From the sequence record SRR20825019_1762: 64,000 nt of DNA. The stretch is one strand, 5' to 3'. The translations under genes and the position numbers were made by a program. The notes under the pieces were generated by a model. It had not been told where the DNA came from, did no database searches, and saw only the letters and a program-made list of their open reading frames with translations. The number at the start of each line of letters is the position of its first letter. Position 1 is the first letter of the stretch. Positions 40,040 through 58,796 of the stretch are shown here, piece by piece.

Positions 40040-40201
40040 AATACGATAAATGGTTTTAATTGTTAAAAATACACATATTTTTTAATAAACAATCGTTTGC
40101 CTATATCTTTAAAAAAATATATTGTATTGTATATCAGTATTTTACATTGTTTTAATTGAGTATTCAGAATAATTTCAATATCAAATTTAAAAAATTTTAA
40201 C

Positions 40202-40213
40202 GCAACCGATTGC
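40202..40213. promoter_or_regulatory. LacI-type operator GCAACCGATTGC overlapping the -33 TTG of the putative susC promoter
   Basis: 11/12 match to the palindromes at 49657 and 61856; TATATTTA -7 variant 19 nt downstream (40232-40239). Confidence 0.7.
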
Positions 40214-40314
40214 GCAAATAGATATATTGTGTATATTTAACACATTCAAAATTACAGGTATGTTTTTTTGCCGTATCTGGATTAATTAACTAAACAAAAT
40301 CAAAACTTAGTAAC

Positions 40315-43300
40315 ATGACTGAAAAATCATTATTTGTTTTTACAAACAGTAAATGGTCCTCGCCTTTGCATTTGTATCTAACAAGCTTTTTGTTATTTAT
40401 TTTTTGTACTACTGCACTAGCACAGGACATTATCTCGGTATCTGGAACAGTGACCGATGAATCGGGTGCACCTATTCCCGGGGTAAGTGTACTTGTACAA
40501 AACACAACAAATGGAACATCGACAGACTTTGACGGGAACTATGTGCTCGAGGCGGCTTCCAGTGCCACCCTTGAGTTTCGCTATCTTGGATTTGTTACGC
40601 AAACGATTGAGGTTAATGGAAGGTCAACAATTAACGTTCAATTAGCTGAAGACACACAGCAACTATCAGAGGTTGTAGTAATTGGGTATGGTACCCAAAG
40701 TAAAGAGTCCGTAACTGGTTCGGTAGTGTCCATTAAGGCCGAGGAATTGAACGAAGTTCAATCCGCCAACTTTACGCAAGCCCTTGTAGGACGGGCCGCA
40801 GGTGTAAATATTTCCTCCACCAGTACACGTCCGGGAGCTGCACCACAGATTCAAATTCGTGGCGTACGCTCACTTACAGCATCAAATGATCCATTAATTG
40901 TTTTAAATGGAATCCCTTTTTCTGGGGGGCTCAGCGACATCAACCAAAACGACATTGAGAGTTTGGATATCCTAAAGGACGCCTCGGCCACAGCAATTTA
41001 TGGATCTAGGGGAGCCAATGGGGTAATCCTCATCACAACAAAGTCAGGTAAAAAAGGACAAAAGGCACAATTCTCTTACAATACTTATTATGGTACCAAG
41101 GAAGTGTTTGCCAAGTTACCAGTAATGAATACGGCCCAACTATTGGAATTACGTGAGATTGCCGCTGCCAATGGCACCGGAACGCCTACAGGAAATGATG
41201 AAAGTGTTGATAATGATACGGATTGGCAAGATTTATTGTTTGGTTCATCCATGCAAACCTCCCACGATATCACTGTACAAGGAGGTACTGAAAATGGCAC
41301 CTACAATGTAGGTTTGGGCTATTTTAAAGAGACTTCTCCTGTTCCCGGTGATTCTTTTCAAAGATATTCCCTACGTTTTTCACTGGACCAACAAGTGGGT
41401 AAATTATTTCGTTACGGGGTAAACTCGGTAATGAACTATAGTGTTACCAAAAGCATAGTCGGTCCAGCCGGGGTGTATACCGCATCTCCTCTTTTAAGTC
41501 CTTATGATGAAAATGGAAACTTTTTGGAATCTGTTAGACTTACGGATGGACAAGACCAAGTATTCATCCCTACTCGAAATGAGATCAACCGAATTGGTAA
41601 ACGAAGAGCAAACGAGCAATTGGACTTCGGTACCTATAACAACGTTTACGCAGAACTTAAAATGCCCTTTATTGCTGAAGGCCTTAAGTACCGCCTTAAC
41701 GTTGGTCTTAACCTAAGATCGAGCAGAGATGGCGATTTTACTGGTCAGGGTGTCTTTAGTTTTAATCCTGATCAACCTAATTCGGCCAGTTACGGAACTA
41801 GTCTTACGCGGGACTATGTAGTTGAGAACCAATTGATTTTCGACAGGACCTTTGCCGATAAGCACAAAGTGAATTTCGTCGGGCTTTTTTCGGCTCAAGG
41901 AAATGATTTTGATAGTTCTTTTATACGGGTTCAAAATATACCGGATGAAAACGATTTATGGTACAATACGGATTCAGCTCTATTGGAAGACGTATTGGAT
42001 TATGATACCAGTTATACAGAATGGGGGCTGTTATCTTTAATGGGAAGGGTCTTGTATGAATATGACAACCGTTACCTGCTTACCGCTACCATACGATCAG
42101 ACGGTTCCTCACGATTGGCGCCAGGTAACAAGTGGTATACCTATCCTGCGGTATCCGTAGGGTGGAACATTGCCAATGAAGCTTTTATGGATAATGTAGA
42201 TGCCATTAACCAATTAAAATTAAGGGCGGGTTATGGAGAAACCTCCAACCAGGCCATTGATCCTTTTTCTGTTCAAGGACGACTAAATGGTGGTGGTACC
42301 AACCCTGCGTATAATTTTGGCGATGTTTTTGCAAATGGTTATGTGGTGACCCAATTGCCCAACTCAAACTTAAAATGGGAGTTTTCGAAAACCTATAATT
42401 ACGGTATTGATTTTGGCCTTTTCAATAATCGCCTTTCTGGTACGGTAGAGTATTATGAAACCGAGACTAACAATATTCTGCTTAACCTCGGTCTACCAAG
42501 CACCTCTGGTGTAAGCAACGTAACCAGTAATGTGGGTAAAACAAAGAGCAATGGGGTGGAGATAGCACTGAATGCTACTCCAATCCAAACTTCGGATTTT
42601 ACTTGGGATGTAGGTGTTAACCTCTATACCAACAGGACCGAGATTGTCGAATTGGCATCAGGTCAACAAGAAGATGTAGGCAACCTTTGGTTTGTAGGCC
42701 AACCTCTTAGCGTTATCTATGATTATGAACGACTGGGATTGTGGAATGCCGATGATGAAGGTGCCGAATTTCTTGAACAATTTGTACCTGGGGGTAATCT
42801 AGGAATGATACGGGTGCGATATACTGGGGAATATAATCCGGATGGTTCACCTGTTCGTCAAATCAATGCGGAAGATAGGGTAGTTATAGACCCAACTCCT
42901 AATTTCCGAGGTGGTTTCAATACTCGCTTTGCCTATAAGAATTTTGATCTTAGCATGGTGGGAGCATTTCAAAGTGGAGGTATTTTAGTAAGTACCCTAC
43001 ACAATACTAATGGTAACACCATGAGGCTAAATGGTCGGGGAAACAACCTTAATGTAGACTACTGGACCCCAACCAACACCGATGCCAAATATCCGGCACC
43101 AGGGGGCATAGGCGGGGACCGGCCAGAATATGGTAGCACCTTGGGGTATTTTGATGGTTCTTACCTAAAGGTACGAGCCATGACCTTGGGCTATAGATTT
43201 GACCCAGATGTGATCAAGGCTATGGGAGCCAAAAATTTATACATATACGGTACAGTACAAAACCCATTTGTACTATTCTCCGATTTTCACGATGAATCGG

Positions 43301-43461
43301 GATTAGATCCAGAAATCACAAATTCGGGTGTGGACAACAACGGAGTAAGGCAAAATGCAGACATAAATACCAATGGGACTGTTTCCGGTAGTATCCCGAC
43401 CATTGGTACCAACGTACCATCTACGCGAAATTATTTATTTGGATTAAATATAACTTTCTAA
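40315..43461 (+). CDS. susC: SusC TonB-dependent transporter (xylan PUL), no STN domain
   Basis: LSEVVVIGYG, PLIVLNGIP, LKDASATAIYGSRGANGVI, C-terminal NITF. Confidence 0.95.
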   Translation: MTEKSLFVFTNSKWSSPLHLYLTSFLLFIFCTTALAQDIISVSGTVTDESGAPIPGVSVLVQNTTNGTSTDFDGNYVLEAASSATLEFRYLGFVTQTIEVNGRSTINVQLAEDTQQLSEVVVIGYGTQSKESVTGSVVSIKAEELNEVQSANFTQALVGRAAGVNISSTSTRPGAAPQIQIRGVRSLTASNDPLIVLNGIPFSGGLSDINQNDIESLDILKDASATAIYGSRGANGVILITTKSGKKGQKAQFSYNTYYGTKEVFAKLPVMNTAQLLELREIAAANGTGTPTGNDESVDNDTDWQDLLFGSSMQTSHDITVQGGTENGTYNVGLGYFKETSPVPGDSFQRYSLRFSLDQQVGKLFRYGVNSVMNYSVTKSIVGPAGVYTASPLLSPYDENGNFLESVRLTDGQDQVFIPTRNEINRIGKRRANEQLDFGTYNNVYAELKMPFIAEGLKYRLNVGLNLRSSRDGDFTGQGVFSFNPDQPNSASYGTSLTRDYVVENQLIFDRTFADKHKVNFVGLFSAQGNDFDSSFIRVQNIPDENDLWYNTDSALLEDVLDYDTSYTEWGLLSLMGRVLYEYDNRYLLTATIRSDGSSRLAPGNKWYTYPAVSVGWNIANEAFMDNVDAINQLKLRAGYGETSNQAIDPFSVQGRLNGGGTNPAYNFGDVFANGYVVTQLPNSNLKWEFSKTYNYGIDFGLFNNRLSGTVEYYETETNNILLNLGLPSTSGVSNVTSNVGKTKSNGVEIALNATPIQTSDFTWDVGVNLYTNRTEIVELASGQQEDVGNLWFVGQPLSVIYDYERLGLWNADDEGAEFLEQFVPGGNLGMIRVRYTGEYNPDGSPVRQINAEDRVVIDPTPNFRGGFNTRFAYKNFDLSMVGAFQSGGILVSTLHNTNGNTMRLNGRGNNLNVDYWTPTNTDAKYPAPGGIGGDRPEYGSTLGYFDGSYLKVRAMTLGYRFDPDVIKAMGAKNLYIYGTVQNPFVLFSDFHDESGLDPEITNSGVDNNGVRQNADINTNGTVSGSIPTIGTNVPSTRNYLFGLNITF

Positions 43462-43465
43462 AAAA

Positions 43466-45409
43466 ATGACTGTGAAAATTAATTTTAAAGCTAAAGTGAT
43501 TACGGTTCTTTCTGTTGTCTTTTTACTGAGCGCATGTACAAAAGAAATTATAGAAGAGAACCCAAGAGGACAATTTACACCTGATTTTTTCCAGTCCGAG
43601 ACTGGTGTTCAGGGCGGTGTGGTGTTCTTATATGAAACCATGAGGGATATTTATGGGAACCCCGGATTCTTTAATTCCACGGAATCGGGTACGGATGAAT
43701 ATACCTTTGCAGAGTCTGCAACCGGTGATTTTAAAAACGTGGACTTGTCCGGAGAAGGACAGATCATATCAGATGAAGGTGCAACTGCTGGAGTATGGTT
43801 TGCGAGTTTCCCTGCCATTAATACAGCCAATGGTATTTTGGAAAATGCAGAGGCCGTAGGATTGGACCCTGCCCTTGTTGCCGAAGTAAGGTTTTTTAGA
43901 GCATTTTATTACTTTTTATTGGTACAGACCTATGGTGGTGTGCCATTGGATCTAGGATCTGGAGAATTGGCATTCAATAGATCTGCTGTCAGGACCTCAA
44001 CACGTAATACAGTTCCGGAAGTTTACACAAAGGCAATTTTTCCTGATTTGGTTACAGCGGTTAACGATTTGCCTGAAAATCCAAGATTGACAGGTACGGT
44101 TACCAAAAATGTGGCCAGGCTCATTTTGGCCAAGGCGTATTTGACCTATGGTTGGTGGTTGGAAAATCCAGAAGGGATTCCAACATATCCTGAAGCTCAA
44201 AGAAACGATCCCGATGGAAATGATCCTTCATTTTATTTTCAAGGGGCATACGATTTGGCCATGGATGGTATACAAAATCCTGGTCCCTACGGTTTGCTGG
44301 AGTATTTTTATGATGTTCACGAAGGCTCTAACGATCGACATATGGAGATGATGTTGTATGCCGACCGTACTCCGGAAAACGAACAATTCAATGGTGCACC
44401 GGTAACAGGCTGGGGGACTACTTCCAACAGTTCCAACACCGCAGTTTGGATGGCAACATCCAATTATACCACCATCAGTGTTGATGGTGTTCCTGCCGTT
44501 CAACGGCAATCGGTTCAGAGCCTTGGTAGACCATGGACACGAATGGCACCTACAGTTAGCAGTTTAACCGAGACTTTTACCGATAAGGATATAGATTCCC
44601 GTTACGACGGTACTTTTACGACCAGTTATCGAGGCAATTGGGACCAAGGAGGCGACGCCACGCCGTCATTGACCGGTGCCAATGGTCTAGAAATTTTTCC
44701 AGGTGATGCCGTTATCTCATTTTTGGACGAGTATGATCCGGCTGTGGTATATGAAGAGAGTGGAGAGCCCATAAACGGTGCCAATATTGGTGGTGGGGTA
44801 TTGCCAGGAAGAGCAGATTACGTAATCAATGTAAACGAATTCAATAGAAGGTTCTATCCCGGTTTATGGAAGACAGGAACCTACCGTGACGATAACGCTG
44901 GAGGTCTGGGTCAGCCCAATGTGCCAAATACGCGCCCTTATCCCATAGCTAAGTTTTCAGAGTTCTATTTTATTGCTGCTGAAGCCCGAGTTAAAGGTGC
45001 ATCTGGAGCAATGAGTGCCAGGGACTTGATCAATGTGATCCGTGCCCGTGCAGGCAAATGGCGTTTTGATAATGGTGAACAAGAAGAGCGCATTGAAGAC
45101 AATAGTGCAGCCATGATAGCAGCTACTCCAATGACCATTGATATTGATTATATCTTGGATGAGCGTTCACGTGAGTATTTTGGTGAAAGTGTGAGATGGT
45201 ATGATCTAGTACGTACCCAGAAATGGATTGAAGTTGCTGGTTCATTCGAAATAGTAGATGACATCACTGCCACAGTTCATAGTCCCACTGCTACAATTTC
45301 ACGTGAAATCCAGCCTTATCATTACTTAAGGCCTATACCACAAACACAGATAGATAATTTGGATATGACCGATGCTGAAAAAGCCACCTATCAAAACCCT
45401 GGATATTAA
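43466..45409 (+). CDS. susD: SusD glycan-binding lipoprotein
   Basis: Lipobox LSAC; RFFRAFYY-LVQTYGGVP, ILDERSRE-FGE, RWYDL-R, PIPQ, QNPGY. Confidence 0.95.
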   Translation: MTVKINFKAKVITVLSVVFLLSACTKEIIEENPRGQFTPDFFQSETGVQGGVVFLYETMRDIYGNPGFFNSTESGTDEYTFAESATGDFKNVDLSGEGQIISDEGATAGVWFASFPAINTANGILENAEAVGLDPALVAEVRFFRAFYYFLLVQTYGGVPLDLGSGELAFNRSAVRTSTRNTVPEVYTKAIFPDLVTAVNDLPENPRLTGTVTKNVARLILAKAYLTYGWWLENPEGIPTYPEAQRNDPDGNDPSFYFQGAYDLAMDGIQNPGPYGLLEYFYDVHEGSNDRHMEMMLYADRTPENEQFNGAPVTGWGTTSNSSNTAVWMATSNYTTISVDGVPAVQRQSVQSLGRPWTRMAPTVSSLTETFTDKDIDSRYDGTFTTSYRGNWDQGGDATPSLTGANGLEIFPGDAVISFLDEYDPAVVYEESGEPINGANIGGGVLPGRADYVINVNEFNRRFYPGLWKTGTYRDDNAGGLGQPNVPNTRPYPIAKFSEFYFIAAEARVKGASGAMSARDLINVIRARAGKWRFDNGEQEERIEDNSAAMIAATPMTIDIDYILDERSREYFGESVRWYDLVRTQKWIEVAGSFEIVDDITATVHSPTATISREIQPYHYLRPIPQTQIDNLDMTDAEKATYQNPGY

Positions 45410-45467
45410 GAATTAAACTATAATCTTCATAAATAGTTTGAGTTAGTTAGTTTTAAGTTGCATTCAT

Positions 45468-45500
45468 AAAGAGGCTGTCCCCATTGGACGGCCTCTTTTA
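45468..45500 (+). terminator. Intrinsic terminator after susD
   Basis: AAAGAGGCTGTCC-CCATT-GGACGGCCTCTTTT. Confidence 0.8.
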
Positions 45501-45576
45501 AATGGTAATGGTAACAAAAAACAGGGTTGGATCATAAGTTCAACCTCTTCCAATTGAAATGAATACCTTTATTTAA

Positions 45577-47376
45577 ATGAAAGTACTTGGGATATCCGCA
45601 TATTATCACGACTCTGCCGCAGCTCTGATTGTGGATGGCGAAGTAATGTATGCTGCCCAAGAAGAACGGTTTTCAAGAATAAAAAATCACGCCTCTTTTC
45701 CAGAGCAGGCTATAATATATTGCCTTTCCGAATCAGGCTATGCATTGGATGACCTTGACTATATTGCCTTTTACGACAAGCCCTTCCTTAAGTTTGAACG
45801 ACTTTTGGAAACGTATTATGCCTTTGCGCCTAAAGGCTTTCGCTCATTTGCCAAGGCTATGCCAATTTGGTTGAAGGAAAAACTCTTTACAAAACAGATC
45901 ATTCGGAAAAGCCTTAAAAAAATCGGTGGAGCACATGCTCTAAAAATTCCCATTGTATTTCCAGAGCATCATCTGTCCCATGCGGCCAGTGCCTTTTATA
46001 CCTCTCCTTTCGCCAAAAGTGCATTTTTGACGGTTGATGGGGTTGGCGAATGGACCACTACCTCCTATGGATTGGCTTCAGGCGACAAAGGAATCGAAGT
46101 ACTTGGGGAACTCCATTTTCCTGATTCACTTGGATTGCTTTATTCTTCTTTCACCTATTTTTTAGGGTTCAAGGTGAATTCAGGTGAATACAAAATGATG
46201 GGACTCGCCCCTTACAGTAATCTTCAATCCAAAAAAGTACAGGGTTTCATCGACATCATCAAAGAAAAATTAGTGGACATTAAAGGAGATGGTTCCATCA
46301 AACTGAACAAAGCGTATTTTGAATATCCCGTTGGGCTTCGGATGGTGAATCCCAAAAAGTGGGAAGCGCTTTTCGGATTCAAGAAACGGGATACCAATGA
46401 ACCCATGACACAAATACATGCGGATTTGGCCTTTGCGGCCCAAAAGGTCTTGGAAGAGATCATCGTAAAGCTGGCCCATCATATTAAAAAGGAAACCCAA
46501 GCGGAATATTTGTGCTTGGCAGGGGGTGTTGCCCTAAATTGTGTGGCGAACTCCGTTTTGTTCAATGAGGCTATTTTCAAGGACATCTATGTACAGCCCG
46601 CAGCGGGTGATGCCGGAGGCGCCATCGGGGCTGCCTTGGCCGCGGCGTATTTAAAGCAGGATTTGAACTTTACCGGACTCAAGAAACCGTTCAATCCTTA
46701 TCTTGGCCCGTGTGCATCCCATCAAGAAATTGAAAGAGTGTTGCGAAGGCACAAATGCCCATATCGTTATTTTGAATCCACGGAGGAACTTATGGGCACA
46801 GTTGCTGGTCATTTGGCTGAAAAAAAAGTAGTGGGATGGTTCAGGGGACGAACGGAATTTGGTCCAAGGGCATTGGGGAATCGCAGTATACTTGCCGACC
46901 CCTCGGACCCCGAAATGCAATCCAAGCTCAACCTGAAAATCAAGTTTCGTGAAAGCTTTCGGCCTTTTGCGCCTGCAGTTTGCGAAGAGGATCATGACAT
47001 TTATTTTGAGCCCGGCAAACAATCAGCATATATGTTGTTCACAAATCCGGTAAAAGCCTCACTCAGGAAATCGTTGCCCAAAAATTTCAACGAACTTACT
47101 CTAGAAGAAAAACGCAAAATACCTAAATCCGATTTGCCAGCCATAACCCATGTGGACTATTCGGCCAGGGTACAAGTGGCAAAAAAGGAGGTCAATCCCA
47201 CGTTTTGGGGTTTATTGCAGACCTTTAAAAAATTAACGGGTACCGGAGTGCTCATCAACACCAGTTTTAATGTTAAAGATGAGCCCATTGTAAACACCCC
47301 GGAAGATGCCTACCATTGTTTTATGAACTCGGGCATGGATGTTCTGGTTTTGGAAAATTATGTAATTGTAAAGTAA
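45577..47376 (+). CDS. O-carbamoyltransferase, NodU/CmcH/TobZ/SxtI family
   Basis: SAYYHDSAA, QEERF-R-K, HHLSHAASAF, DGVGE, AGGVALNCVAN, AAGDAG, EFGPRALGNRS, RESFRPFAP, NTSFN. Confidence 0.95.
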   Translation: MKVLGISAYYHDSAAALIVDGEVMYAAQEERFSRIKNHASFPEQAIIYCLSESGYALDDLDYIAFYDKPFLKFERLLETYYAFAPKGFRSFAKAMPIWLKEKLFTKQIIRKSLKKIGGAHALKIPIVFPEHHLSHAASAFYTSPFAKSAFLTVDGVGEWTTTSYGLASGDKGIEVLGELHFPDSLGLLYSSFTYFLGFKVNSGEYKMMGLAPYSNLQSKKVQGFIDIIKEKLVDIKGDGSIKLNKAYFEYPVGLRMVNPKKWEALFGFKKRDTNEPMTQIHADLAFAAQKVLEEIIVKLAHHIKKETQAEYLCLAGGVALNCVANSVLFNEAIFKDIYVQPAAGDAGGAIGAALAAAYLKQDLNFTGLKKPFNPYLGPCASHQEIERVLRRHKCPYRYFESTEELMGTVAGHLAEKKVVGWFRGRTEFGPRALGNRSILADPSDPEMQSKLNLKIKFRESFRPFAPAVCEEDHDIYFEPGKQSAYMLFTNPVKASLRKSLPKNFNELTLEEKRKIPKSDLPAITHVDYSARVQVAKKEVNPTFWGLLQTFKKLTGTGVLINTSFNVKDEPIVNTPEDAYHCFMNSGMDVLVLENYVIVK

Positions 47377-47526
47377 ATGGAGTTTTTAAAAGAATTCTTT
47401 CTGTTTCTAAAAGAGCGAAAAAAGTGGTGGTTGGTACCCTTGATCATCATATTTGTGCTTTTTGGCATACTGATTTTTTTGACCAGTAGCTCTGCACTGG
47501 CACCTTTTATTTATACCTTATTTTGA
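47377..47526 (+). CDS. 49-aa single-TM DUF5989/SxtK-like peptide (not in the ORF track)
   Basis: Translated by hand: MEFLKEFFLFLKERKKWWLVPLIIIFVLFGILIFLTSSSALAPFIYTLF. Its ATG directly follows the upstream TAA and its TGA overlaps the next ATG. Confidence 0.88.
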   Translation: MEFLKEFFLFLKERKKWWLVPLIIIFVLFGILIFLTSSSALAPFIYTLF

Positions 47527-47885
47527 TGGAAAGGGAAAAAGCTTTTGAAACGATCATTGTTCTGGCACTGGCCTCGCTCATTTTTTCAGTGTGGTTGCAC
47601 GTGGAGTGGCTGGTCTATGTGGCCATGGCCTTTTTGGCCATCGGTGTTGTTTCCAAACGGGCTTCGACCCTTATTGCAAAAGTATGGCTAGGGTTTTCCC
47701 ATTATCTGGGTGTGGTAATGAATTTTGTGTTAATGTTCATCATATTTCATTGCATACTGATTCCTCTGGCAGGGTTGCAACGTTTGTTTGGCAATAATCA
47801 GGTTCGTAAGAAAACTACCGAAACTTCCTATTTTCATCCACGTAAGCACCTTTACACGGGGAAGGATATTGACAATCCCTGGTAG
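47526..47885 (+). CDS. SxtJ-like small membrane protein
   Basis: ATG at 47526 (TGATG overlap); hydrophobic segments; W--FS--LG...IFH-IL-P...SYF...NPW pattern; synteny with the carbamoyltransferase and DUF5989. Confidence 0.78.
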   Translation: MEREKAFETIIVLALASLIFSVWLHVEWLVYVAMAFLAIGVVSKRASTLIAKVWLGFSHYLGVVMNFVLMFIIFHCILIPLAGLQRLFGNNQVRKKTTETSYFHPRKHLYTGKDIDNPW

Positions 47886-47900
47886 CCAAAAAATTTGAAT

Positions 47901-49628
47901 TTACCTTTTTGTAGAACGGTTCTTTTTAAGATAGTTGCTCTTCTTAAAATAATAATCGGCATAAGCATCATCCTGTAACTTACGGCACATCTCCCCTGCC
48001 ATCTTATAAACTTTGTACTGTTCAGGAAACTCAAAAATCAAGGTCTGGGCCACTTTTAGCGCACTTTTATAATCCCCATCCTCATTGTATTTGTGATAAG
48101 CCTGAGTCATTACATACTGCCATTGGTCCTGATGCCTATATAGATTGACGGCAGTTTTTTCCTCGAAGGTCGGGTTTTGTGTCACATAACTAAACTCAGC
48201 AGGCGTTGTTCCGGACATACTCAGGTCATAGGGCCATGATTTTTTAAGGATTTCCACCGCCAATTTCCCTTTTATGGAATCAATTTTGGTCACTGGAATA
48301 TCATCAAAGGCCTCTTCATATGTAATATAGTTTTGCCAACCTTTCAGTAGTCTCAGTTCTTTGATTTTTTCGTAGAACGCATCCGCCATCACAAAATACC
48401 CTTCCACGTTGGGGTGTACGTGCTCCGCCACCAATTTATCCCCCACTATCCCATATGGAACTTTGGATTCGAATATGCCCTTCATATCAACCAAAGGTAG
48501 GTCGTACTCATGGGCCTGCTCGATAATTGCATCGTTGATCCTTTCGGGGGCCCTAAACCTTAATAGATCCAATTCTTTGGCCAAGTGCAAGTATTTTTTG
48601 GCGGAATCTGGTTCCTTTTCCAGATAATATTGGCCCAAGATATAGGCCGCATCTGCATTTTGAAGCGCCAAACCATGCCCTTCAGTTTTATTTTCCTGAA
48701 TCGCCGCTCTGTAATCCTCAACATTCAGGCTATCGCTGATAAAAGGCTTGATATCCTTTTCATTCGACACTAGGGTTGAAAGTATAACAGGGATATTATG
48801 ACGTTGATATTTATCCAATATTCTTTTCAAATTACTTTTGAACTGCGTTATTCCCGCATTAAAAGCATCTGAATCCAAAGGAATTTCCTGCTCTTTGGCC
48901 ATGACCTCCATCAAGGTGGTCTCATCGGTAGACATGGTATTTTGGTCATCCGACTTCATCAGGCCCATGATTCCGTTTTCAAGCAGTTGAAAAAACCGAA
49001 AGTTCTTCAGTCTAAGGTAATTTCTGACCAATGCGGGATGACTCCCAACGGAAGCGGAAGAACCTACCCCCAGGGCCCCATAATATTCGTTGTGTCCCGC
49101 ATAAATAATGACCAAGTCCGGTTTTTGATCAATAATTTTATCGGTTATGTCCCATAACGTATAGGAATTTACCGCCGTGATTGCGGTATTGACCACTTCT
49201 ATGTTTTTTTCCGGGAACGTCCGGGAAAGCCTATGTTTCAATAGTCTTGGGAAAGACGCCCCCTTATAGAAAGGATAGCCCACGACGGTTGAGGCCCCTT
49301 GGACAAACACCCTAAAGGTGCTATCCGTTTTTTGTCTGAGGAAGAGGTCCGATTGACTATCCGCATTAAAATCTGTCCCTCTAAAATATTTCTTGGACAA
49401 ATCGGAGTTGACAACCAAATACTCAACGCCATTTTCACCCTTGACGCTATTGAATAATTGGTAATTTTCCCCATAGCCAATCCCCCATAAAATTGGCTCC
49501 AAGATTAAGATCATGATCAATGGAAGAGTCGCCGCAATAATTCTAAAAAGTATTTTCTTCTTCACACCAGAGAATTTTGTCTGTTCATGAGTACTAGTTA
49601 AATAGTGCTTAACTGGGTTTATCCACAA
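47901..49628 (-). CDS. Membrane-anchored SGNH/GDSL-fold protein with TPR-like segments
   Basis: N-terminal KKK plus TM helix (start may be GTG at 49565); block I GAST, block III YAGHNE, block V EHVHP. Confidence 0.8.
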   Translation of the reverse strand: MWINPVKHYLTSTHEQTKFSGVKKKILFRIIAATLPLIMILILEPILWGIGYGENYQLFNSVKGENGVEYLVVNSDLSKKYFRGTDFNADSQSDLFLRQKTDSTFRVFVQGASTVVGYPFYKGASFPRLLKHRLSRTFPEKNIEVVNTAITAVNSYTLWDITDKIIDQKPDLVIIYAGHNEYYGALGVGSSASVGSHPALVRNYLRLKNFRFFQLLENGIMGLMKSDDQNTMSTDETTLMEVMAKEQEIPLDSDAFNAGITQFKSNLKRILDKYQRHNIPVILSTLVSNEKDIKPFISDSLNVEDYRAAIQENKTEGHGLALQNADAAYILGQYYLEKEPDSAKKYLHLAKELDLLRFRAPERINDAIIEQAHEYDLPLVDMKGIFESKVPYGIVGDKLVAEHVHPNVEGYFVMADAFYEKIKELRLLKGWQNYITYEEAFDDIPVTKIDSIKGKLAVEILKKSWPYDLSMSGTTPAEFSYVTQNPTFEEKTAVNLYRHQDQWQYVMTQAYHKYNEDGDYKSALKVAQTLIFEFPEQYKVYKMAGEMCRKLQDDAYADYYFKKSNYLKKNRSTKR

Positions 49629-49656
49629 CTTTAAATTATAAACCGGATAATTTTAC

Positions 49657-49668
49657 GCAATCGATTGC
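49657..49668. promoter_or_regulatory. LacI-type operator GCAATCGATTGC overlapping the -33 of the GH10 promoter
   Basis: Perfect palindrome; its TTG (49665-49667) is 20 nt before a perfect TATTTTTG (49688-49695). Confidence 0.78.
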
Positions 49669-49750
49669 ATTTTGCTAATTTATTAATTATTTTTGGTCAA
49701 AAACAGCACAACCTATAAATAACATCGCTTATTTTAACAAATACTTAATT

Positions 49751-50866
49751 GTGAACAAATTTATCTTTTTGATTCTACCCATCCTGATATTTTCAGGAAC
49801 TCAATCCAAAGCTCAACAAAAACTAACACTCAAAGAAGCTTTTAAAGACAAATTTTTGATGGGCGTAGCAGTGAATCGATATCAAATAAACCAAAGCAAC
49901 CAGGAGGAAACAGACCTTATCGCTTCCCAATTTAATGCGCTGACAGCAGAAAACGACATGAAATGGATGTACATACATCCGGAGGAGAACACATTTAATT
50001 TTGAGCAGTCCGATAAATTGGTGGAACTCGCTCAAAAAAATGACATGTTCGTGGTTGGCCATACCCTTGTATGGCATAGCCAATTGGCACCTTGGGTATT
50101 CAAGTCCAACAATGGGGATACCATTAGCAATGAGGAGTTGAACGGCCGAATAAAAAAGCATATCTCTACCATTGTTGGGAACTACAAGGGCAGGATAGAC
50201 GCTTGGGATGTCGTCAATGAAGCTTTGGAAGAAGATGGATCATATAGAAAATCCCCGTTTTACAAAATAGGTGGAGAAGCCTTTATAGAAAAAGCGTTCC
50301 AATATGCAAATGCTGCCGACCCTGGAGCCGAACTCTACTACAACGACTATAACCTTATCACCCCGGAAAAGAGGAACGGGGCCATACGTATTATCAACAA
50401 CCTTAAAAGCAAAGGAATCAAAATAGACGGCGTTGGAGTTCAAGCCCATTGGAGTTTGAACGAACCCTCCATTGAAGATATCGAGACCGCCATTAAAATG
50501 TATTCGGAAACTGGTGTAAAAGTCATGTTCACGGAACTGGATATTTCGGTTTTGCCCAGTCCTTGGAACGCGCCGACCGCTGATGTTTCCGTAAGTTTTG
50601 AGAACAACCCTACCATGAACCCCTACCCCAACGGCTTGCCGGATTCTGTACAAACCCAATTGGCAAAACGGTATGAAGAAATTTTTAAGCTTTTCAACAA
50701 GCATTCGGATAAAATTGGAAGGGTTACCTTTTGGGGGTTGCACGATGGCCTGTCCTGGAAAAACAATTTTCCCATTCGCGGCAGAACGGATTATACCTTG
50801 CTTTTCGATAGGGGAATGAAACCCAAAAAGGCATTCAATGCAGTAATCAATACAGTTAAAGATTAA
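49751..50866 (+). CDS. GH10 endo-1,4-beta-xylanase, signal peptide
   Basis: ENDMKW, GHTLVWHSQ, WDVVNE acid/base, YYNDYN, TELD nucleophile, RVTFWG. Confidence 0.96.
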   Translation: MNKFIFLILPILIFSGTQSKAQQKLTLKEAFKDKFLMGVAVNRYQINQSNQEETDLIASQFNALTAENDMKWMYIHPEENTFNFEQSDKLVELAQKNDMFVVGHTLVWHSQLAPWVFKSNNGDTISNEELNGRIKKHISTIVGNYKGRIDAWDVVNEALEEDGSYRKSPFYKIGGEAFIEKAFQYANAADPGAELYYNDYNLITPEKRNGAIRIINNLKSKGIKIDGVGVQAHWSLNEPSIEDIETAIKMYSETGVKVMFTELDISVLPSPWNAPTADVSVSFENNPTMNPYPNGLPDSVQTQLAKRYEEIFKLFNKHSDKIGRVTFWGLHDGLSWKNNFPIRGRTDYTLLFDRGMKPKKAFNAVINTVKD

Positions 50867-50888
50867 CTTCCATCATTCCAACAGATTA

Positions 50889-53867
50889 ATGAAAACAACA
50901 AATAGGTCAACATATCAAACTTGCCTTGGTCTTACAGGATTGTTCCTGCTGCTATTCCTGACATCCTGTAAAAAGGAAAAAAGAGAAACTACTACTGAAA
51001 CCAATATCATGGAACGGGTTCTAACACTATCAACGGAAGCCGCCTTTCCACAAAATTCAATCCTTACCACCCAAAAGGATGAAAGTGGGTTCACCTTGGT
51101 GGAAAATGGAATTGCCAGCAATATCCTTGTCAGTGAATCGGACCACGAAGGTGTTCAACGGATTGCCGGAATGTTCCAAAAAGATTTAAAACATGTTTCT
51201 GGTCAAGCACCGGAATTGATCATTGGGGATACACCCGGATCAAAGAACTTGATCATTATAGGAACCGTTGGCCAGAGCACTATAATCGACCGTTTGGCCA
51301 AAGACGGCAAAATCGATATAGAGGTACTGGAAGGAAAATGGGAGCAATTTTTAATCACTCCCGTAAAAAACCCGATGGAAGGAGTTGACAGCGCATTAGT
51401 AATCGCTGGGAGTGACAAACGGGGGACTATTTTTGGAATGTTCGACCTTTCCGAGCAAATGGGTGTTTCTCCATGGTATTGGTGGGCCGATGTTCCCGTG
51501 AAGGTTCGAAAAAACATTTACGTCAAACCTGAAAGGTACACCCTCGGTGAGCCCAAAGTAAAATATAGAGGCATCTTCATCAATGACGAAGCCCCGGCAT
51601 TATCGGGTTGGGTAACAGAAAAATATGGGGATTTCAACAAACAATTCTATGAAAAGGTATTTGAATTGATTCTCAGAATGAAAGGGAACTACCTTTGGCC
51701 TGCCATGTGGGGGCGCTCCCTTTGGGACGACGACCCCACCACGGCCCCGTTGGCAGATGAAATGGGTGTGGTTTTGGCCACATCGCACCACGAACCATTG
51801 ATGCGTTCGCACGTGGAATGGGACCGCCACGGCGAAGGTCCGTGGGATTATGACAAAAACCCTGAAAAACTAAGGGAGTTTTGGAGAGAAGGGATGGAGC
51901 GTACCAAAGGACAAGAAAAAGTGGTGACCCTTGCCATGCGAGGAGACGGGGATGAAGCCATGAGCGAAGGAACCAACATTGACCTTCTTGAAAAAATAGT
52001 AAAAGACCAAAGAGAAATCATCAAGGAAGTCACGGGCAAACCCATTAAAGAAACCCCACAAGTGTGGGCCCTTTACAAAGAAGTCCAGGAATATTACGAC
52101 AAAGGCATGCGTGTACCCAAGGATGTCACCCTATTACTTTGTGATGATAACTGGGGACAGGTCCGCGTTTTGCCTGCTTTGGACAGCGAACCCCGCTCAG
52201 GCGGCTATGGGATGTACTATCATTTTGACTTTGTAGGCGGCCCCCGAAGTTATAAATGGTTGAACACCACTCAAATTGAACGGGTCTGGGAGCAAATGAA
52301 CCTCACCTATTCCTACGGAGTGGATGAGATTTGGCTCGTAAATGTGGGAGATATAAAGCCCATGGAGTTCCCGATCAGTTTCTTTTTGGATTATGCTTGG
52401 AACCCTGAAAATTTTCCAGCAGAAAAGCTGCCGGAATATTACACCACTTGGGCCCAAAAGCAATTTGGAACCGAACATGCCCAAGAAATTGGCGAAATCA
52501 TAGCACTTTACACCAAATACAATTCACGCAGAAAACCAGAACTGCTAGAACCCGCCACCTATAGTCTTCAACATTTCAACGAAGCTGAGAATATGGTAGA
52601 AGATTATAATTCCTTGGTGACCCGTGCAAAAAAGGTGAAAGGTCAGTTACCTTCCAAGGCCCATGATGCTTTTTATCAATTGGTGCAATATCCTGTTGAG
52701 GCCTGTGTAAATTTGAACGAAATGTATGTGGCAGCAGGAAAGAACCGATTGTACGGTTTTCAGAACAGGGCATCCACCAACTACTATGCAGATAAAACAG
52801 AGGAGTTGTTCTTCAAGGATACCGTGTTCACAAATCACTATCATGATCTGGCCAATGGCAAATGGAACCATATGATGTCCCAAACCCATATGGGACATAC
52901 GACTTGGAGTGACCCAGCCTACAATAAAATGCCCGCAGTATCCTATATTCAATCAGGAAAAGATGCTCATTTGGGATATGTGATTGAAAATGGTATCAGC
53001 AGAAATCAATGGATGCCCAGTGGATTAAACAGTCAAAGCTTTTCTACTTTTGATCCCATCAACGATCAAAACTACTATATCGATGTCTTTAATATGGGCA
53101 AGGAAAAACTGTCGTACACCATCACTTCAGAAAATGATTGGATAAAGTTATCCTCCGAGGGCGGAACCATCCAATATGACGAAAAGGTCTTTGTCAGCAT
53201 TGATTGGGACAAAGCTCCCCAAGGACAGGATGTTGGGGAAGTTGTTATTACTGCATCAAATGCAGAACAAGGCACTAAAATCAACGTCCCCATTCGCAAT
53301 GATCTCCCAGAAAACATCAAAGGTTTTATAGAAAATCAAGGCATTGTAAGCATGGACGCTGTGAATTATCAAAAGTCCAATGAAACAGAAGATATTTCTT
53401 GGCAAACCATACCCAATTTAGGACGAACAGGGTCTGCCATAACCACTATGCCCGTTACCGCGGCCAAACAAAATCCTAACGATAACGGTCCGTATTTGGA
53501 ATATGATATTTACTTGATTGATCCAGGCACTTATAACCTAACGACCTACTTTTCACCTACCCTTAACTTTCAAAAAGATGAAGGTTTGCTTTATGCTGTT
53601 TCCATAGATGATGAAGCGCCAAAATTGATGAACTTGCACCAAGATGCCATTGCTGCGGATTGGACCTATCCCACTTGGTGGAACGAAGCGGTCAAGGACA
53701 ACATCATGAAACAAACGGTGCTAGCCAAAGATCTTTCGGCAGGTGTCCATAGCATCAAGTATTGGGCCGTTGACCCTGGGCTTGTATTACAAAAAATGGT
53801 ACTGCAAAAAGAAGGTGTTGATGCGAAAAGTTATTTGGGTCCGCCTGAAAGCTTGATCAAGAAATAA
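50889..53867 (+). CDS. GH115 xylan alpha-1,2-glucuronidase, lipoprotein
   Basis: GSDKRG, GVSPWYWWAD, YRGIFINDE, NYLWPAMW, SHHEP, RGDGD, YYHFD, NVGDIKP; lipobox LTSC. Confidence 0.95.
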   Translation: MKTTNRSTYQTCLGLTGLFLLLFLTSCKKEKRETTTETNIMERVLTLSTEAAFPQNSILTTQKDESGFTLVENGIASNILVSESDHEGVQRIAGMFQKDLKHVSGQAPELIIGDTPGSKNLIIIGTVGQSTIIDRLAKDGKIDIEVLEGKWEQFLITPVKNPMEGVDSALVIAGSDKRGTIFGMFDLSEQMGVSPWYWWADVPVKVRKNIYVKPERYTLGEPKVKYRGIFINDEAPALSGWVTEKYGDFNKQFYEKVFELILRMKGNYLWPAMWGRSLWDDDPTTAPLADEMGVVLATSHHEPLMRSHVEWDRHGEGPWDYDKNPEKLREFWREGMERTKGQEKVVTLAMRGDGDEAMSEGTNIDLLEKIVKDQREIIKEVTGKPIKETPQVWALYKEVQEYYDKGMRVPKDVTLLLCDDNWGQVRVLPALDSEPRSGGYGMYYHFDFVGGPRSYKWLNTTQIERVWEQMNLTYSYGVDEIWLVNVGDIKPMEFPISFFLDYAWNPENFPAEKLPEYYTTWAQKQFGTEHAQEIGEIIALYTKYNSRRKPELLEPATYSLQHFNEAENMVEDYNSLVTRAKKVKGQLPSKAHDAFYQLVQYPVEACVNLNEMYVAAGKNRLYGFQNRASTNYYADKTEELFFKDTVFTNHYHDLANGKWNHMMSQTHMGHTTWSDPAYNKMPAVSYIQSGKDAHLGYVIENGISRNQWMPSGLNSQSFSTFDPINDQNYYIDVFNMGKEKLSYTITSENDWIKLSSEGGTIQYDEKVFVSIDWDKAPQGQDVGEVVITASNAEQGTKINVPIRNDLPENIKGFIENQGIVSMDAVNYQKSNETEDISWQTIPNLGRTGSAITTMPVTAAKQNPNDNGPYLEYDIYLIDPGTYNLTTYFSPTLNFQKDEGLLYAVSIDDEAPKLMNLHQDAIAADWTYPTWWNEAVKDNIMKQTVLAKDLSAGVHSIKYWAVDPGLVLQKMVLQKEGVDAKSYLGPPESLIKK

Positions 53868-53902
53868 TCTAATTTTCAACATAATTTGATAAAACACGTA
53901 TT

Positions 53903-55861
53903 GTGAAAAACGATAAAACCTTTGCAACATTCATATTATTGATGTTCTGTGTCACTGCAGGAATATCCCAGATAACGCTTCCTGAAATAATCAGGGACAG
54001 TATGGTCATCCAGCGCAACGCCAAAATCACCATTTGGGGCTGGGCTTCGCCGGGAGAGCGGATAACGGCAACATTCAACGGAAAGCAAAGAAAAACGTCT
54101 GCCGATTCCGAAGGCGACTGGAGCTTGGAATTCCCCAAAATGAAGGCGGGGGGCCCTTACACCCTAGAAATTTCCGGAAAAAACAATATCCGTCTCGAAG
54201 ATATTTTGATCGGGGATGTTTGGCTCTGTTCCGGACAATCGAATATGGTGCATCAAATGGACATTCACGATGTTACCTATGCAAAAGATATTGTCAATGC
54301 CAATTACCCTGAAATCAGGCATTTTAAGGTGCCTCGAAAGACTGATTTGCAAGGCCCGAGCAAAGATTTGGACGGAGGCTCTTGGAAAGTTGCCGTATCC
54401 GAAGAGGTTCGGCCTTTCTCTGCCGTCGCTTATTTTTTTGCACTCAAATTGTATAAAAAATATGGGGTGCCCATCGGACTGATCAATGCAAGTGTCGGCG
54501 GTACTCCCATTGAAGCTTGGATAAACGAGGAAGGCTACCAAAAATCCCCTGGCATTTTAAAAATTATTGAGGAGAACAAGGACACTGCTTTTGTAAACAG
54601 TCATTCCATTAACCGGTTTTCTGGGAATCAACCATCTCAAAAACCAAAAGACAAGGGCCTTATCGGCGAAAAACCTTGGTATGATGTCAACTTTGAACCC
54701 AAAAACTGGCGTAGGATAAACATCCCTGGATATTGGGAGGATCAAGGAGCCAGAGACCTTAACGGTGTGGTTTGGTACAGGAAGGAAATCGTTCTGCCCC
54801 AATCCATGGACAACGAAGAGGCGACCGTGTTTTTGGGCCGTATCGTAGACGCCGATGAATTGTATATCAATGGTGAAAAAGTGGGCAACACCACCTACCA
54901 ATATCCACAAAGAAGATATGATGTTCCCGCAAATATTCTGAAAGCCGGGAAAAACACTTTTGTCATTCGTGTGACCAATAATTACGGTAAGGGTGGTTTT
55001 GTTCCCGATAAACCTTATTACATTTTTACGGATAAGGACACCGTGGATTTAAATGGATACTGGCAATACAAGGTTGGAGAAGTGTATCCGCCCGTTGATT
55101 TTTCCTCTTTTTCTCAGAATGATGGCAAATCCAAAGAAAGAACCATCAATCCCCAAAATGAGCCCACGGCTTTGTACAACGGTATGGTGGCCCCCTATAT
55201 CCAACTTCCCATAAAAGGCGTGTTGTGGTATCAAGGCGAGAGCAACGCTGGCAGACCTGAGGAATACCTGGACTTGATGCACGCCCTGATGAATGGATGG
55301 AGAGGAATTTACAATGATCCCGAGCTGCCTTTTATCTATGCGCAGCTTCCCAATTTTGGTGATGTGACCTACTCCCCCACCGAGAGCAACTGGGCCGAAC
55401 TCAGGGAAGCACAACTAAAGGCGCTGGGCGGCCCCAGCACCGCAATGACCGTCAATATTGATTTAGGGGAATGGAACGATATCCACCCGGACAATAAAAA
55501 AGATGTAGGGGAGCGAATGGCTTTAGCAGCCAAAAAAATAGCGTATGGAGAAGATATCGTCTATTCAGGACCACTTTATCAATCTTCTCAAATAAAAGAT
55601 GATAAAATCATCATTTCCTTTTCACATATCGGGGGAGGATTGACCACTGATGATGGTGAGGCTCTTGATAGCTTTGAGATTGCCGGTGAGGACAAAAACT
55701 TTGTTTGGGCCAAGGCAAAAATTGATGATGACAAAGTAATCGTTTGGAGTAATGAAGTTCCTAATCCAAAATATGTACGATACGCATGGGCCGACAATCC
55801 CGACAATCCGAATTTATACAACAAAGAAGGTCTTCCTGCATCACCCTTCAGAACTGAATAG
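53903..55861 (+). CDS. SASA/sialate O-acetylesterase-like glycan acetylesterase (CE20-type split SGNH)
   Basis: GDVWLCSGQSNM, inserted beta-sandwich, WYQGESN, DIHP-NK, VRYAW, GLPASPFRT. Confidence 0.88.
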   Translation: MKNDKTFATFILLMFCVTAGISQITLPEIIRDSMVIQRNAKITIWGWASPGERITATFNGKQRKTSADSEGDWSLEFPKMKAGGPYTLEISGKNNIRLEDILIGDVWLCSGQSNMVHQMDIHDVTYAKDIVNANYPEIRHFKVPRKTDLQGPSKDLDGGSWKVAVSEEVRPFSAVAYFFALKLYKKYGVPIGLINASVGGTPIEAWINEEGYQKSPGILKIIEENKDTAFVNSHSINRFSGNQPSQKPKDKGLIGEKPWYDVNFEPKNWRRINIPGYWEDQGARDLNGVVWYRKEIVLPQSMDNEEATVFLGRIVDADELYINGEKVGNTTYQYPQRRYDVPANILKAGKNTFVIRVTNNYGKGGFVPDKPYYIFTDKDTVDLNGYWQYKVGEVYPPVDFSSFSQNDGKSKERTINPQNEPTALYNGMVAPYIQLPIKGVLWYQGESNAGRPEEYLDLMHALMNGWRGIYNDPELPFIYAQLPNFGDVTYSPTESNWAELREAQLKALGGPSTAMTVNIDLGEWNDIHPDNKKDVGERMALAAKKIAYGEDIVYSGPLYQSSQIKDDKIIISFSHIGGGLTTDDGEALDSFEIAGEDKNFVWAKAKIDDDKVIVWSNEVPNPKYVRYAWADNPDNPNLYNKEGLPASPFRTE

Positions 55862-55878
55862 GTTACCTCAGCCAAGAC

Positions 55879-55913
55879 AAAAAAAGGGACATCAATAATG
55901 ATTTCCTTTTTTT
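55879..55913. terminator. Bidirectional terminator between convergent genes
   Basis: A7-GGGACATC...GATTTCC-T7. Confidence 0.6.
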
Positions 55914-55936
55914 ATAAAGAATGCTGGAATTTTGCA

Positions 55937-58796
<2,860 letters not shown>

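Follow-up and report, generated by a model that had tools for sequence, protein, structure and literature searches.

A widespread four-gene carbamoyltransferase, DUF5989, SxtJ, and SGNH cassette: a possible MBOAT-free relay for carbamoylation outside the cytoplasmic membrane

A compact four-gene cassette

The window analyzed here, a 64,000 nt stretch of sequence record SRR20825019_1762 (contig C21 of its own genome G000, 4.4 Mb with 6378 open reading frames, or ORFs), contains a cassette of four genes: three consecutive genes for a carbamoyltransferase (CT), a micro-protein of the DUF5989 family, and SxtJ, and a fourth, convergent gene for a membrane-anchored SGNH protein (Table 1). As the first-pass annotation of this DNA had described, the first three genes abut or overlap one another, the stop codon of CT lying directly against the ATG of the peptide (TAAATG) and the TGA of the peptide sharing one base with the ATG of SxtJ (TTGATG); the stop codons of the convergent SxtJ and SGNH genes are 15 bases apart. 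The four-gene system is widespread and is undescribed in the sources that we searched, and comparative evidence drawn from sequence argues well both for the four genes as a unit and for a tyrosine-shuttle/SGNH half within that unit.

Table 1. Features of the cassette and MBOAT loci of the same genome. Coordinates refer to the window unless a contig is named; residues of the SGNH protein are counted from the TTG at 49628.
Feature	Coordinates	Strand	Remarks
CT gene	45577-47376	+	599 aa
GPRALGNRS stretch of CT, residues 429-437	46861-46887	+	G429, R431, L433, G434, R436, and S437 invariant in 63 linked CTs
20-residue insertion of CT, residues 498-517	47068-47127	+	Columns filled in >70% of 63 linked and <20% of 20 unlinked CTs
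DUF5989 micro-protein gene	47377-47526	+	49 aa
C-terminal hexapeptide F44-I-Y46-T-L-F49, form FXYXXF	47506-47523	+	Tyr46 codon 47512-47514, candidate carrier residue
SxtJ gene	47526-47885	+	119 aa from ATG; 120 aa from TTG at 47523
SGNH protein, open frame	47901-49628	-	575 aa from TTG at 49628
Membrane-anchored SGNH protein, likely extent	47901-49565	-	554 aa from GTG at 49565; helical C-terminal region
N-terminal signal-anchor helix of SGNH protein	49485-49553	-	Glu44 codon 49497-49499; motif LE..L(R/W) then YG
Ser113 codon, block I nucleophile (G-A-S-T)	49290-49292	-	Ser in 68/70 SGNH-like neighbors; invariant in alignment A2
Asn180 codon, block III (G-H-N-E)	49089-49091	-	Asn in 55/70; invariant in A2
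His405 codon, block V (E-H-V-H-P-N; Glu402 three residues earlier)	48414-48416	-	His in 66/70; invariant in A2
Candidate hairpin, then T-run	45470-45499	+	Between SusD and CT genes; read by eye; weak, absent from terminator-scan output
Five MBOAT loci (L200-L204)	C1:423238-425622, 432373-434766, 447260-449715, 460682-463098; C38:304030-307130		Four within 40 kb on C1

The DUF5989 peptide ends in a tyrosine-shuttle hexapeptide

The peptide matches DUF5989 (PF19451) over the whole profile (1-49 of 49; 2.1e-24, 85.7 bits with a cut-off of 27) and consists of a basic N-terminal flank (KERKKWW), one transmembrane (TM) helix at approximately residues 17-35, and an uncharged tail ending A-P-F-I-Y-T-L-F. 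Seven residues, L19, P21, A42, P43, F44, Y46, and F49, are invariant in alignment A1 (21 sequences, the window peptide and 20 from other Bacteroidota genomes). The family is large: among 1.84 billion cluster representatives, a profile search recognized 6108 members at E<=0.001, and the 150 best representatives include 148 with the motif AP-F-x-Y-x-x-[F/V/I], which stands at the extreme C-terminus in 130. The peptide thus carries exactly the C-terminal FXYXXF hexapeptide that is known as an "acyl shuttle" from DltX, which bears it at an extracellular C-terminus, and from PatA-type MBOATs, which also end in it; the shuttle Tyr carries an acyl group to the catalytic Ser of an SGNH partner (PMC12148441). 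From charge bias alone, the N-terminus of the peptide is predicted to be inside and the tail outside.

Several less regular forms of the family were also encountered. C-terminal extensions beyond the motif (18 of the 150 representatives) look like junk, and we rejected them as real features; we likewise rejected long SxtJ or DUF5989 "fusions" in high-GC genomes (L033, L036, L095, L062, L047, and L074), the N-terminal parts of which are low-complexity read-through and not domains. SxtJ and DUF5989 share one 197 aa frame, with an aberrant SxtJ end, in an alphaproteobacterial long-read metagenome-assembled genome (L098:9557-10150), and the 197 aa representative P0139 also bears a long N-terminal extension; the L098 frame could reflect a frameshift, and is not treated as a fusion here. 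The membrane form of the peptide is rare in viral contigs (2 relatives), and a PDB profile search with the peptide gave only a chance match to YkoE (E 0.74).

One might suppose that DUF5989 is itself an end product or a signal, a substrate whose tail is modified by the CT and SGNH enzymes rather than a carrier. We regard this as quite improbable: the peptide has no leader/core architecture; its sequence is near-invariant across phyla, unlike most modified-peptide cores; its motif is the very one found in known carriers; and genes for glycan synthesis are among its neighbors.

The carbamoyltransferase belongs to a dedicated branch

To judge by its sequence, the CT is a TobZ/GdmN-type O-carbamoyltransferase. 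It matches both Pfam domains of the family (Carbam_trans_N, 2.8e-91, profile 1-346 of 346; Carbam_trans_C, 7.7e-69, 2-170 of 170), can be aligned from end to end with the solved GdmN (2.9e-85) and TobZ (4e-67), and is laid out as a Kae1-like N-domain followed by a YrdC-like C-domain, without a membrane segment. The first-pass annotation had called the enzyme NodU/TobZ-type; the full-length alignment and the two Pfam domains bear out the TobZ part of that name, but the NodU part has to be dropped, the CT scoring 162.4 bits against the NodU equivalog NF041651, which has a cut-off of 1000. H131, H132, and H135 of the HHxxH cluster are invariant in 63 CTs that are linked to DUF5989, and we take this cluster and the GPRALGxRS stretch (Table 1) to be the catalytic residues, as in the TobZ literature. 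A GPRALGxRS-type motif is also quoted for SxtI (2026 preprint).

In a tree of the 63 DUF5989-linked CTs and 20 unlinked Bacteroidota CTs, a single branch (support 0.998, unrooted) divides the two sets; the window CT, which falls on the linked side, shares 48-72% identity with the linked CTs, drawn from many phyla, and 32-41% with the unlinked Bacteroidota CTs. This split, these identities, and the 20-residue insertion characteristic of the linked set (Table 1) lead us to conclude that the CT represents a dedicated branch that travels together with the peptide. CT C-domains were also seen within frames of approximately 969 aa in two genomes lacking DUF5989 (G039:C1:620647-621153 and G275:C26:52372-52941), possibly fused forms of CT.

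SxtJ

The SxtJ match (PF19588) is marginal (9.8e-6, 26.7 bits with a cut-off of 24.4); the 119 aa form is present letter for letter in the Atlas, where all 30 feature hits are SxtJ clusters. Hydropathy and charge profiles of 76 sequences reveal a protein with three hydrophobic stretches; its C-terminal tail is basic and has an aromatic last residue. Charge bias suggests that the basic segments, including the long C-tail, lie inside, and the third and longest hydrophobic stretch is perhaps re-entrant. A second SxtJ-like match in the same genome (G000:C38:150791-150961, an 85 aa frame) scores 22.5 bits, below the cut-off.

The SGNH protein and the MBOAT systems of the same genome

The fourth protein matches Lipase_GDSL_2 (2.7e-10, 41.5 bits with a cut-off of 32.9). 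The first-pass annotation had described it as membrane anchored with Ser, Asn, and His intact, and Ser113, Asn180, and His405 are indeed all present; the Gly of block II is replaced by Ala. Its start is most likely the GTG at 49565, because the Atlas record begins there and homologs align from residue 22. The helical C-terminal region corresponds to tetratricopeptide repeats (TPR) in homologs, where TPR families match, and a PDB profile search with the SGNH alignment was dominated by TPR proteins. Among 70 SGNH-like neighbors of DUF5989 in many phyla, 65 have an N-terminal hydrophobic segment, and the anchor Glu44 is retained in 57 and replaced by Asp in 5. The SGNH domain is probably outside, as charge bias and homology to the product of an MBOAT-following gene would suggest.

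An SGNH profile built iteratively from DUF5989 neighbors matches 9 of the 6378 ORFs of the genome; the window gene is the best match, and the second best (3e-27) follows an MBOAT gene. The window itself contains no MBOAT gene, as had been stated at first pass: the five MBOAT matches of the genome lie on contigs C1 and C38, none on C21. A careful comparison of the cassette with these five systems reveals likeness at several levels. Specifically, i) the last TM helix of all five MBOAT proteins is followed by a terminal FIYFQF or FIYFRF; ii) each of the five MBOAT genes is followed by a gene for an N-anchored protein, and the SGNH profile matches two of these five, both with the anchor motif LE..LR (Pfam finds ALGX in one of the five, weak DUF1574/SGNH in another, and nothing in three); iii) the SGNH protein encoded after an MBOAT gene at C1:460682-461641 has the anchor motif SLEVLVRIFYLGED, as in the window protein; iv) the second-best match to the SGNH profile begins ...ISLEVLVRIFYLGEDKP, and the window protein and its homologs have ...LLE(I/V)xLR(I/L)FxYGxD at the same place; and v) this second-best match has the anchor motif LE..LR.F.YG.D in common with the window protein, and hhalign matches the two over 128 columns that span both block I and the anchor (E 9e-4, probability 23%). 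Because of the FIYxxF tails, the shared anchor, and the retained Ser and His, we regard the "tail plus SGNH" half of the cassette as the same kind of module as the MBOAT-SGNH systems. Glycosyltransferase-like genes lie around the five MBOAT loci, which look like several polysaccharide O-acylation modules.

Co-occurrence of the four families in Bacteroidota

The same evenly drawn sample of 301 Bacteroidota genomes was searched four times, and the overlaps were computed. DUF5989 was found in 115 genomes, the CT C-domain in 141, SxtJ (for which the profile hidden Markov model, or HMM, is weak) in 88, and the long SGNH protein in 104. CT is present in 114 of the 115 DUF5989 genomes, the exception (G129) being a peptide match with an internal stop, and the long SGNH protein is present in 102 of them; conversely, DUF5989 is absent from 2 of the 104 long-SGNH genomes and from 1 of the 88 SxtJ genomes, and 27 genomes have CT without DUF5989. 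The survey that had been proposed at first pass thus finds the four families together across genomes, even where they are unlinked. Presence is patchy inside families, the cassette genes being gained and lost together; in the family to which the window genome belongs, the peptide, SxtJ, and the SGNH protein were each found in 1 of the 22 other genomes, and each time in the same one. CT and SxtJ are present in all five genomes with scattered genes, and several genomes in family f29 have CT and SxtJ paired at one place and DUF5989 and SGNH paired at another. A motif search of G288 did not find DUF5989 beside CT-SxtJ.

The Bacteroidota loci also offer a number of neighborhood observations. In five loci from families f29, f33, and f38 (L008, L009, L011, L012, and L014), the SGNH gene and the peptide stand beside a conserved block encoding a protein of approximately 1210 aa without a Pfam match, a PorV/FadL-like outer-membrane barrel, CBM20/T9SS-tail proteins (T9SS, type IX secretion system), and alpha-amylases. 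A gene for a UbiA-family prenyltransferase lies directly 3′ of SxtJ in three loci (L006:8490-9356, L039:10528-11397, and L096:10531-11517), and in the latter two an SGNH-like gene of 341-346 aa also lies upstream of CT. A gene for the large chain of carbamoyl-phosphate synthase lies directly upstream of CT-SxtJ-DUF5989 in L020 (3882-7748), and a related ORF is found in L018. Where the SGNH gene is unlinked, it can lie between a PF01923 cobalamin-adenosyltransferase-like gene and a phosphoglucosamine-mutase-like gene (L007, L101, L221, L223, and L224), with an AmiA-like amidase gene next in order in L007, a faint hint of a cell-wall link. Over 20 loci with an unlinked SGNH gene we found no shared neighbor that would name the acceptor; the order PF01923-like gene, SGNH, glmM-like gene occurs in 3 of the 20 and is lineage specific.

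The cassette in other phyla

Scans outside the phylum, with one genome per species, gave 80 loci and then 78 (49 of them new), that is 129, for 150 loci overall. Cassette loci were found in Pelagibacteraceae (SAR11), Acidobacteriota, Nitrospira, Planctomycetes, Actinomycetota, Omnitrophota, Cyanobacteria, and others; DUF5989 is present in 50 (the unpublished G373 among them) of 101 genomes sampled from the family to which a Pelagibacteraceae genome belongs. Chitinophaga, Lacibacter, and Bradyrhizobium also include cassette carriers (loci L075, L055, and L194). CT lies in the locus in 132 of the 150 cases; 77 loci have CT, SxtJ, and an SGNH-like gene, in 5 DUF5989 adjoins an SGNH-like gene and CT is absent from the stretch, and 10 have none of the three partners. 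Of the 129 loci, 63 have an SGNH-profile match no more than 3 kb from DUF5989, the expected number being approximately 0.01 per 6 kb as estimated from the 9 matches in 4.4 Mb; a few of the SGNH-like neighbors match AlgX or DltD. Microcoleus, Lyngbya, and Tychonema have CT-SxtJ-DUF5989 followed by SGNH-like genes, at least three per locus, and in Trichodesmium the peptide is followed by six SGNH genes, CT being approximately 22 kb away. Several SGNH paralogs behind one peptide would fit one donor feeding several transferases.

Surface-glycan genes are frequent neighbors of the cassette. We shortlisted 70 polytopic membrane proteins encoded within 6 kb, four of which were already annotated; the 66 that were scanned include no MBOAT and one AT3 protein. 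Surface-glycan assembly is represented among the polytopic neighbors by PMT_2, GT87, Wzy_C, Wzx, and UbiA; frequent soluble neighbors are epimerases, GT4, GT2, and DegT aminotransferases, and GT-C genes also recur.

These counts bear on the idea that DUF5989 and the SGNH protein form an ordinary acyl shuttle, to which an unseen donor supplies acetyl or some other acyl group, with the CT-SxtJ pair unrelated to them. The motif and the SGNH partner are indeed those of acyl relays, but the near-constant presence of CT in DUF5989 genomes (114/115) and in the loci themselves (132/150), the separate branch formed by linked CTs, and the scarcity of acyltransferases among the 66 polytopic neighbors make this alternative, in our opinion, a shade more improbable even than DUF5989 as an end product.

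Genomic setting and transcription

The cassette is set inside a glucuronoxylan-utilization locus (window 38891-45409 and 49751-58796) with the order GH43, SusC, SusD, cassette, GH10, GH115, SASA esterase, GH43 beta-xylosidase, and UxuA. We annotated 12 flanking ORFs (SusC, SusD, GH10, GH43, GH115, esterase, and sugar-acid genes) and found no core saxitoxin (sxt) biosynthetic gene among them. In G279 (locus L002), the sole cassette-bearing relative in the same family, the cassette also lies between SusC/SusD, GH10-like, and GH43-like genes, although in a different order.

The setting could suggest that the SGNH protein is simply an esterase of the surrounding xylan locus, for example an acetyl-xylan esterase, next to the other three genes by coincidence, and the protein does have weak PDB sequence matches to acetyl-xylan esterases (E 0.03-0.13). 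Such a coincidence is very unlikely, the least probable of the alternatives that we consider: DUF5989 is present in 102 of the 104 genomes with the long SGNH protein; the same SGNH family flanks the trio in loci that have no xylan genes; and the protein is anchored in the inner membrane, with neither a lipoprotein nor a secretion signal.

The hairpin and T-run between SusD and CT (Table 1) may mark the end of the upstream transcription unit. Promoter and terminator scans of the region gave numbers of sites no higher than in shuffled sequence, and Rfam had no match in 45300-49900. A 252 nt contig from a marine RNA library covers the end of CT, DUF5989, and the start of SxtJ without differences, a weak sign of transcription; of the four RNA runs, X1 and X4 yielded two short contigs each and X2 and X3 none, a depth that is uninformative as to expression level.

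A possible carbamoyl relay

We lean, by a little, toward reading the cassette as a tyrosine-shuttle/SGNH relay that handles carbamoyl groups, does without an MBOAT, and modifies something outside the cytoplasmic membrane. Four steps can be envisaged: i) the cytoplasmic CT would make carbamoyl-AMP from carbamoyl phosphate and ATP, as expected from what is known of the TobZ family; ii) by analogy with DltX-DltD and PatA-PatB, the carbamoyl group would be loaded as an aryl carbamate onto Tyr46 in the FIYTLF tail of DUF5989; iii) SxtJ, in what is the least supported step, would hold CT at the membrane and help bring the tail and the CT active site together; and iv) again by analogy with these two systems, the anchored SGNH protein would take the group from Tyr onto Ser113 and then transfer it to an envelope polymer, at a hydroxyl group; the helical/TPR end of the protein may hold this polymer. 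The tyrosine-shuttle and SGNH half of MBOAT-SGNH systems would in this way be retained, and the MBOAT/acyl-CoA half replaced by CT and SxtJ. We know of no carbamoyl transferase activity in the SGNH fold. The first-pass annotation had put forward such a relay with SxtJ as the membrane conduit and a DltX-like peptide as the carrier; the motif, the anchor, and the co-occurrence speak for its tyrosine-shuttle/SGNH half and for the four-gene unit, but not for the conduit or for homology with DltX.

We wish to stress that a number of observations weigh against this relay. i) There is no visible path by which the carbamoyl group could cross the membrane, CT having no membrane segment and the Tyr tail being predicted outside; SxtJ is the only candidate helper for loading an outer-side Tyr from a cytoplasmic CT. 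ii) In SxtJ, only W54 and P80 are conserved at 90% or more and no polar residue is invariant, and we rejected SxtJ as an MBOAT fragment (hhalign probability 0.2%); without invariant polar residues or MBOAT likeness, its role as a conduit is unsupported. iii) The DltX HMM (PF12459) does not match the peptide at E<=10 (over the whole genome it has 3 matches at that threshold, none on C21), so the likeness of the peptide to DltX, which includes one TM helix, the C-terminal FXYXXF, and an invariant Tyr, is one of architecture and motif only; similarly, the peptide profile aligns to the five MBOAT C-termini over the motif only (E 0.0018, probability 15%). iv) The long SGNH protein is missing from 13 of the 115 DUF5989 genomes, and a single short-SGNH query found nothing in five of these 13, all trio-bearing relatives; in 51 of the 150 loci the stretch retrieved contains CT and SxtJ without an SGNH-like gene; and the SGNH-type Pfam families that match 39 of 52 SGNH-like neighbors at E<=0.01 do so mostly below Pfam cut-offs. 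v) Related genomes are not phylogenetically independent, and the Fisher value computed for the overlaps therefore overstates co-occurrence. vi) SxtL of the saxitoxin clusters has been proposed to cleave the carbamoyl group, that is, to be a decarbamoylase or hydrolase (PMC2679770, PMC2885083), and the carbamoyl acceptor there is a soluble small alkaloid, unlike the polymer envisaged here.

Some of these points would be accommodated by the main rival, a membrane-tethered CT with a periplasmic hydrolase, in which CT modifies a lipid-linked sugar or small molecule at the cytoplasmic face, DUF5989 and SxtJ serve only to anchor or activate it, and the SGNH protein trims carbamoyl or acyl groups outside. 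TobZ, GdmN, and WapO act directly in the cytoplasm (PMC8005017), no conduit is evident in SxtJ, and both the loci without a nearby SGNH-like gene (51/150) and the proposed decarbamoylase SxtL (PMC2679770, PMC2885083) would fit. A tethered CT with a hydrolase would, however, leave unexplained the invariant outer-side FXYXXF tail, the DUF5989 plus SGNH pairs that occur apart from CT, the anchor motif held in common with MBOAT-following genes, and the multiple SGNH paralogs behind one peptide, and we consider it unlikely, if less so than the alternatives discussed above.

The carbamoyl relay can be put in a wider form, in which many phyla (SAR11, flavobacteria, Nitrospira, and filamentous cyanobacteria among them) O-carbamoylate an envelope polymer without an MBOAT protein, an SxtJ-docked CT loading the peptide Tyr and anchored SGNH enzymes acting as the carbamoyl transferases, and in which the same relay is the SxtI/J/K/L step, SxtL being a transferase and not a decarbamoylase. 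We offer this wider form tentatively, as a serious possibility that falls somewhat short of being probable. If true, a carbamate mark and a new donor enzyme would join the tyrosine-shuttle/SGNH logic of D-alanylation and O-acetylation; activated groups would cross the membrane without an MBOAT or AT3 protein; and both DUF5989, with its 6108 cluster representatives, and SxtJ would acquire a role. SxtJ, SxtK, and SxtL have been without an explanation since 2008, and carriers of DUF5989 are abundant, accounting for example for about half of the genomes sampled in the Pelagibacteraceae case.

Comparison with known systems

The literature searched holds no description of the system, in agreement with the first-pass statement that the mechanism is undescribed. 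Neither DUF5989, PF19451, nor PF19588 was found mentioned there, and we found no relevant paper linking carbamoyltransferase with SGNH, DltX, or MBOAT in that search; the word "carbamoyl" is absent from PMC12148441. Envelope carbamoylation as such is on record, that of the Pseudomonas core heptose being ascribed to a putative stand-alone CT, WapO (PMC8005017).

One parallel is with the saxitoxin clusters, in which sxtI (1839 bp), sxtJ (405 bp), sxtK (165 bp), and sxtL (1281 bp, GDSL lipase) occur (PMC2679770), sxtJ and sxtK being described as uncharacterized (PMC2679770, PMC2684587, PMC2885083, PMC12300590, 2026 preprint). Like the cassette, SxtI-J-K-L brings together a CT, a 134 aa ORF, a 54 aa ORF, and a GDSL-type gene (PMC2679770), and the closest published relatives of sxtI/J/K/L are in Trichodesmium and Lyngbya (PMC2684587, PMC2885083), genera that hold CT-SxtJ-DUF5989-SGNH cassettes in our scans. 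The parallel drawn at first pass therefore fits the published gene sizes and order as well as the cyanobacterial loci. The flanks differ, being xylan-utilization genes in the window and not sxt biosynthetic genes. Among the 80 loci kept from the query with the Trichodesmium peptide, none is from a recognized saxitoxin producer; SxtK is a putative member of DUF5989.

Stand-alone CTs (TobZ, GdmN, NovN, NodU, and WapO) are the same two-domain enzyme and align over the full length, but need no membrane partners, whereas the window CT falls on a separate branch with a 20-residue insertion. AT3-SGNH proteins (OatA, OafA) likewise pass a group from a Tyr intermediate to an outside SGNH domain (PMC12148441); the cassette, however, has no AT3 domain, and AT3 was found in 1 of the 66 polytopic neighbors. 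DltX-DltB-DltD, which D-alanylates teichoic acid in Bacillota, resembles the cassette in having a single-TM micro-protein with a C-terminal FXYXXF and a carrier Tyr (PMC12148441), and an N-anchored SGNH-type partner outside the membrane; it differs in that the cassette has no linked MBOAT and no carrier protein, uses an ATP-dependent CT as donor, includes SxtJ, lacks a PF12459 match, and is found mostly in Gram-negative hosts. PatA-PatB, AlgI-AlgJ/AlgX, and the MBOAT pairs of the window's own genome share with the cassette an FIYxxF tail that follows a TM helix and closes the protein, and the latter pairs, in addition, an N-anchored gene after each MBOAT gene, two of the five matching the SGNH profile with LE..LR. 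In these MBOAT systems the tail is part of the MBOAT polypeptide itself, and the donor is acetyl-CoA (PMC12148441); in the cassette, the tail is a separate peptide of 49 aa.

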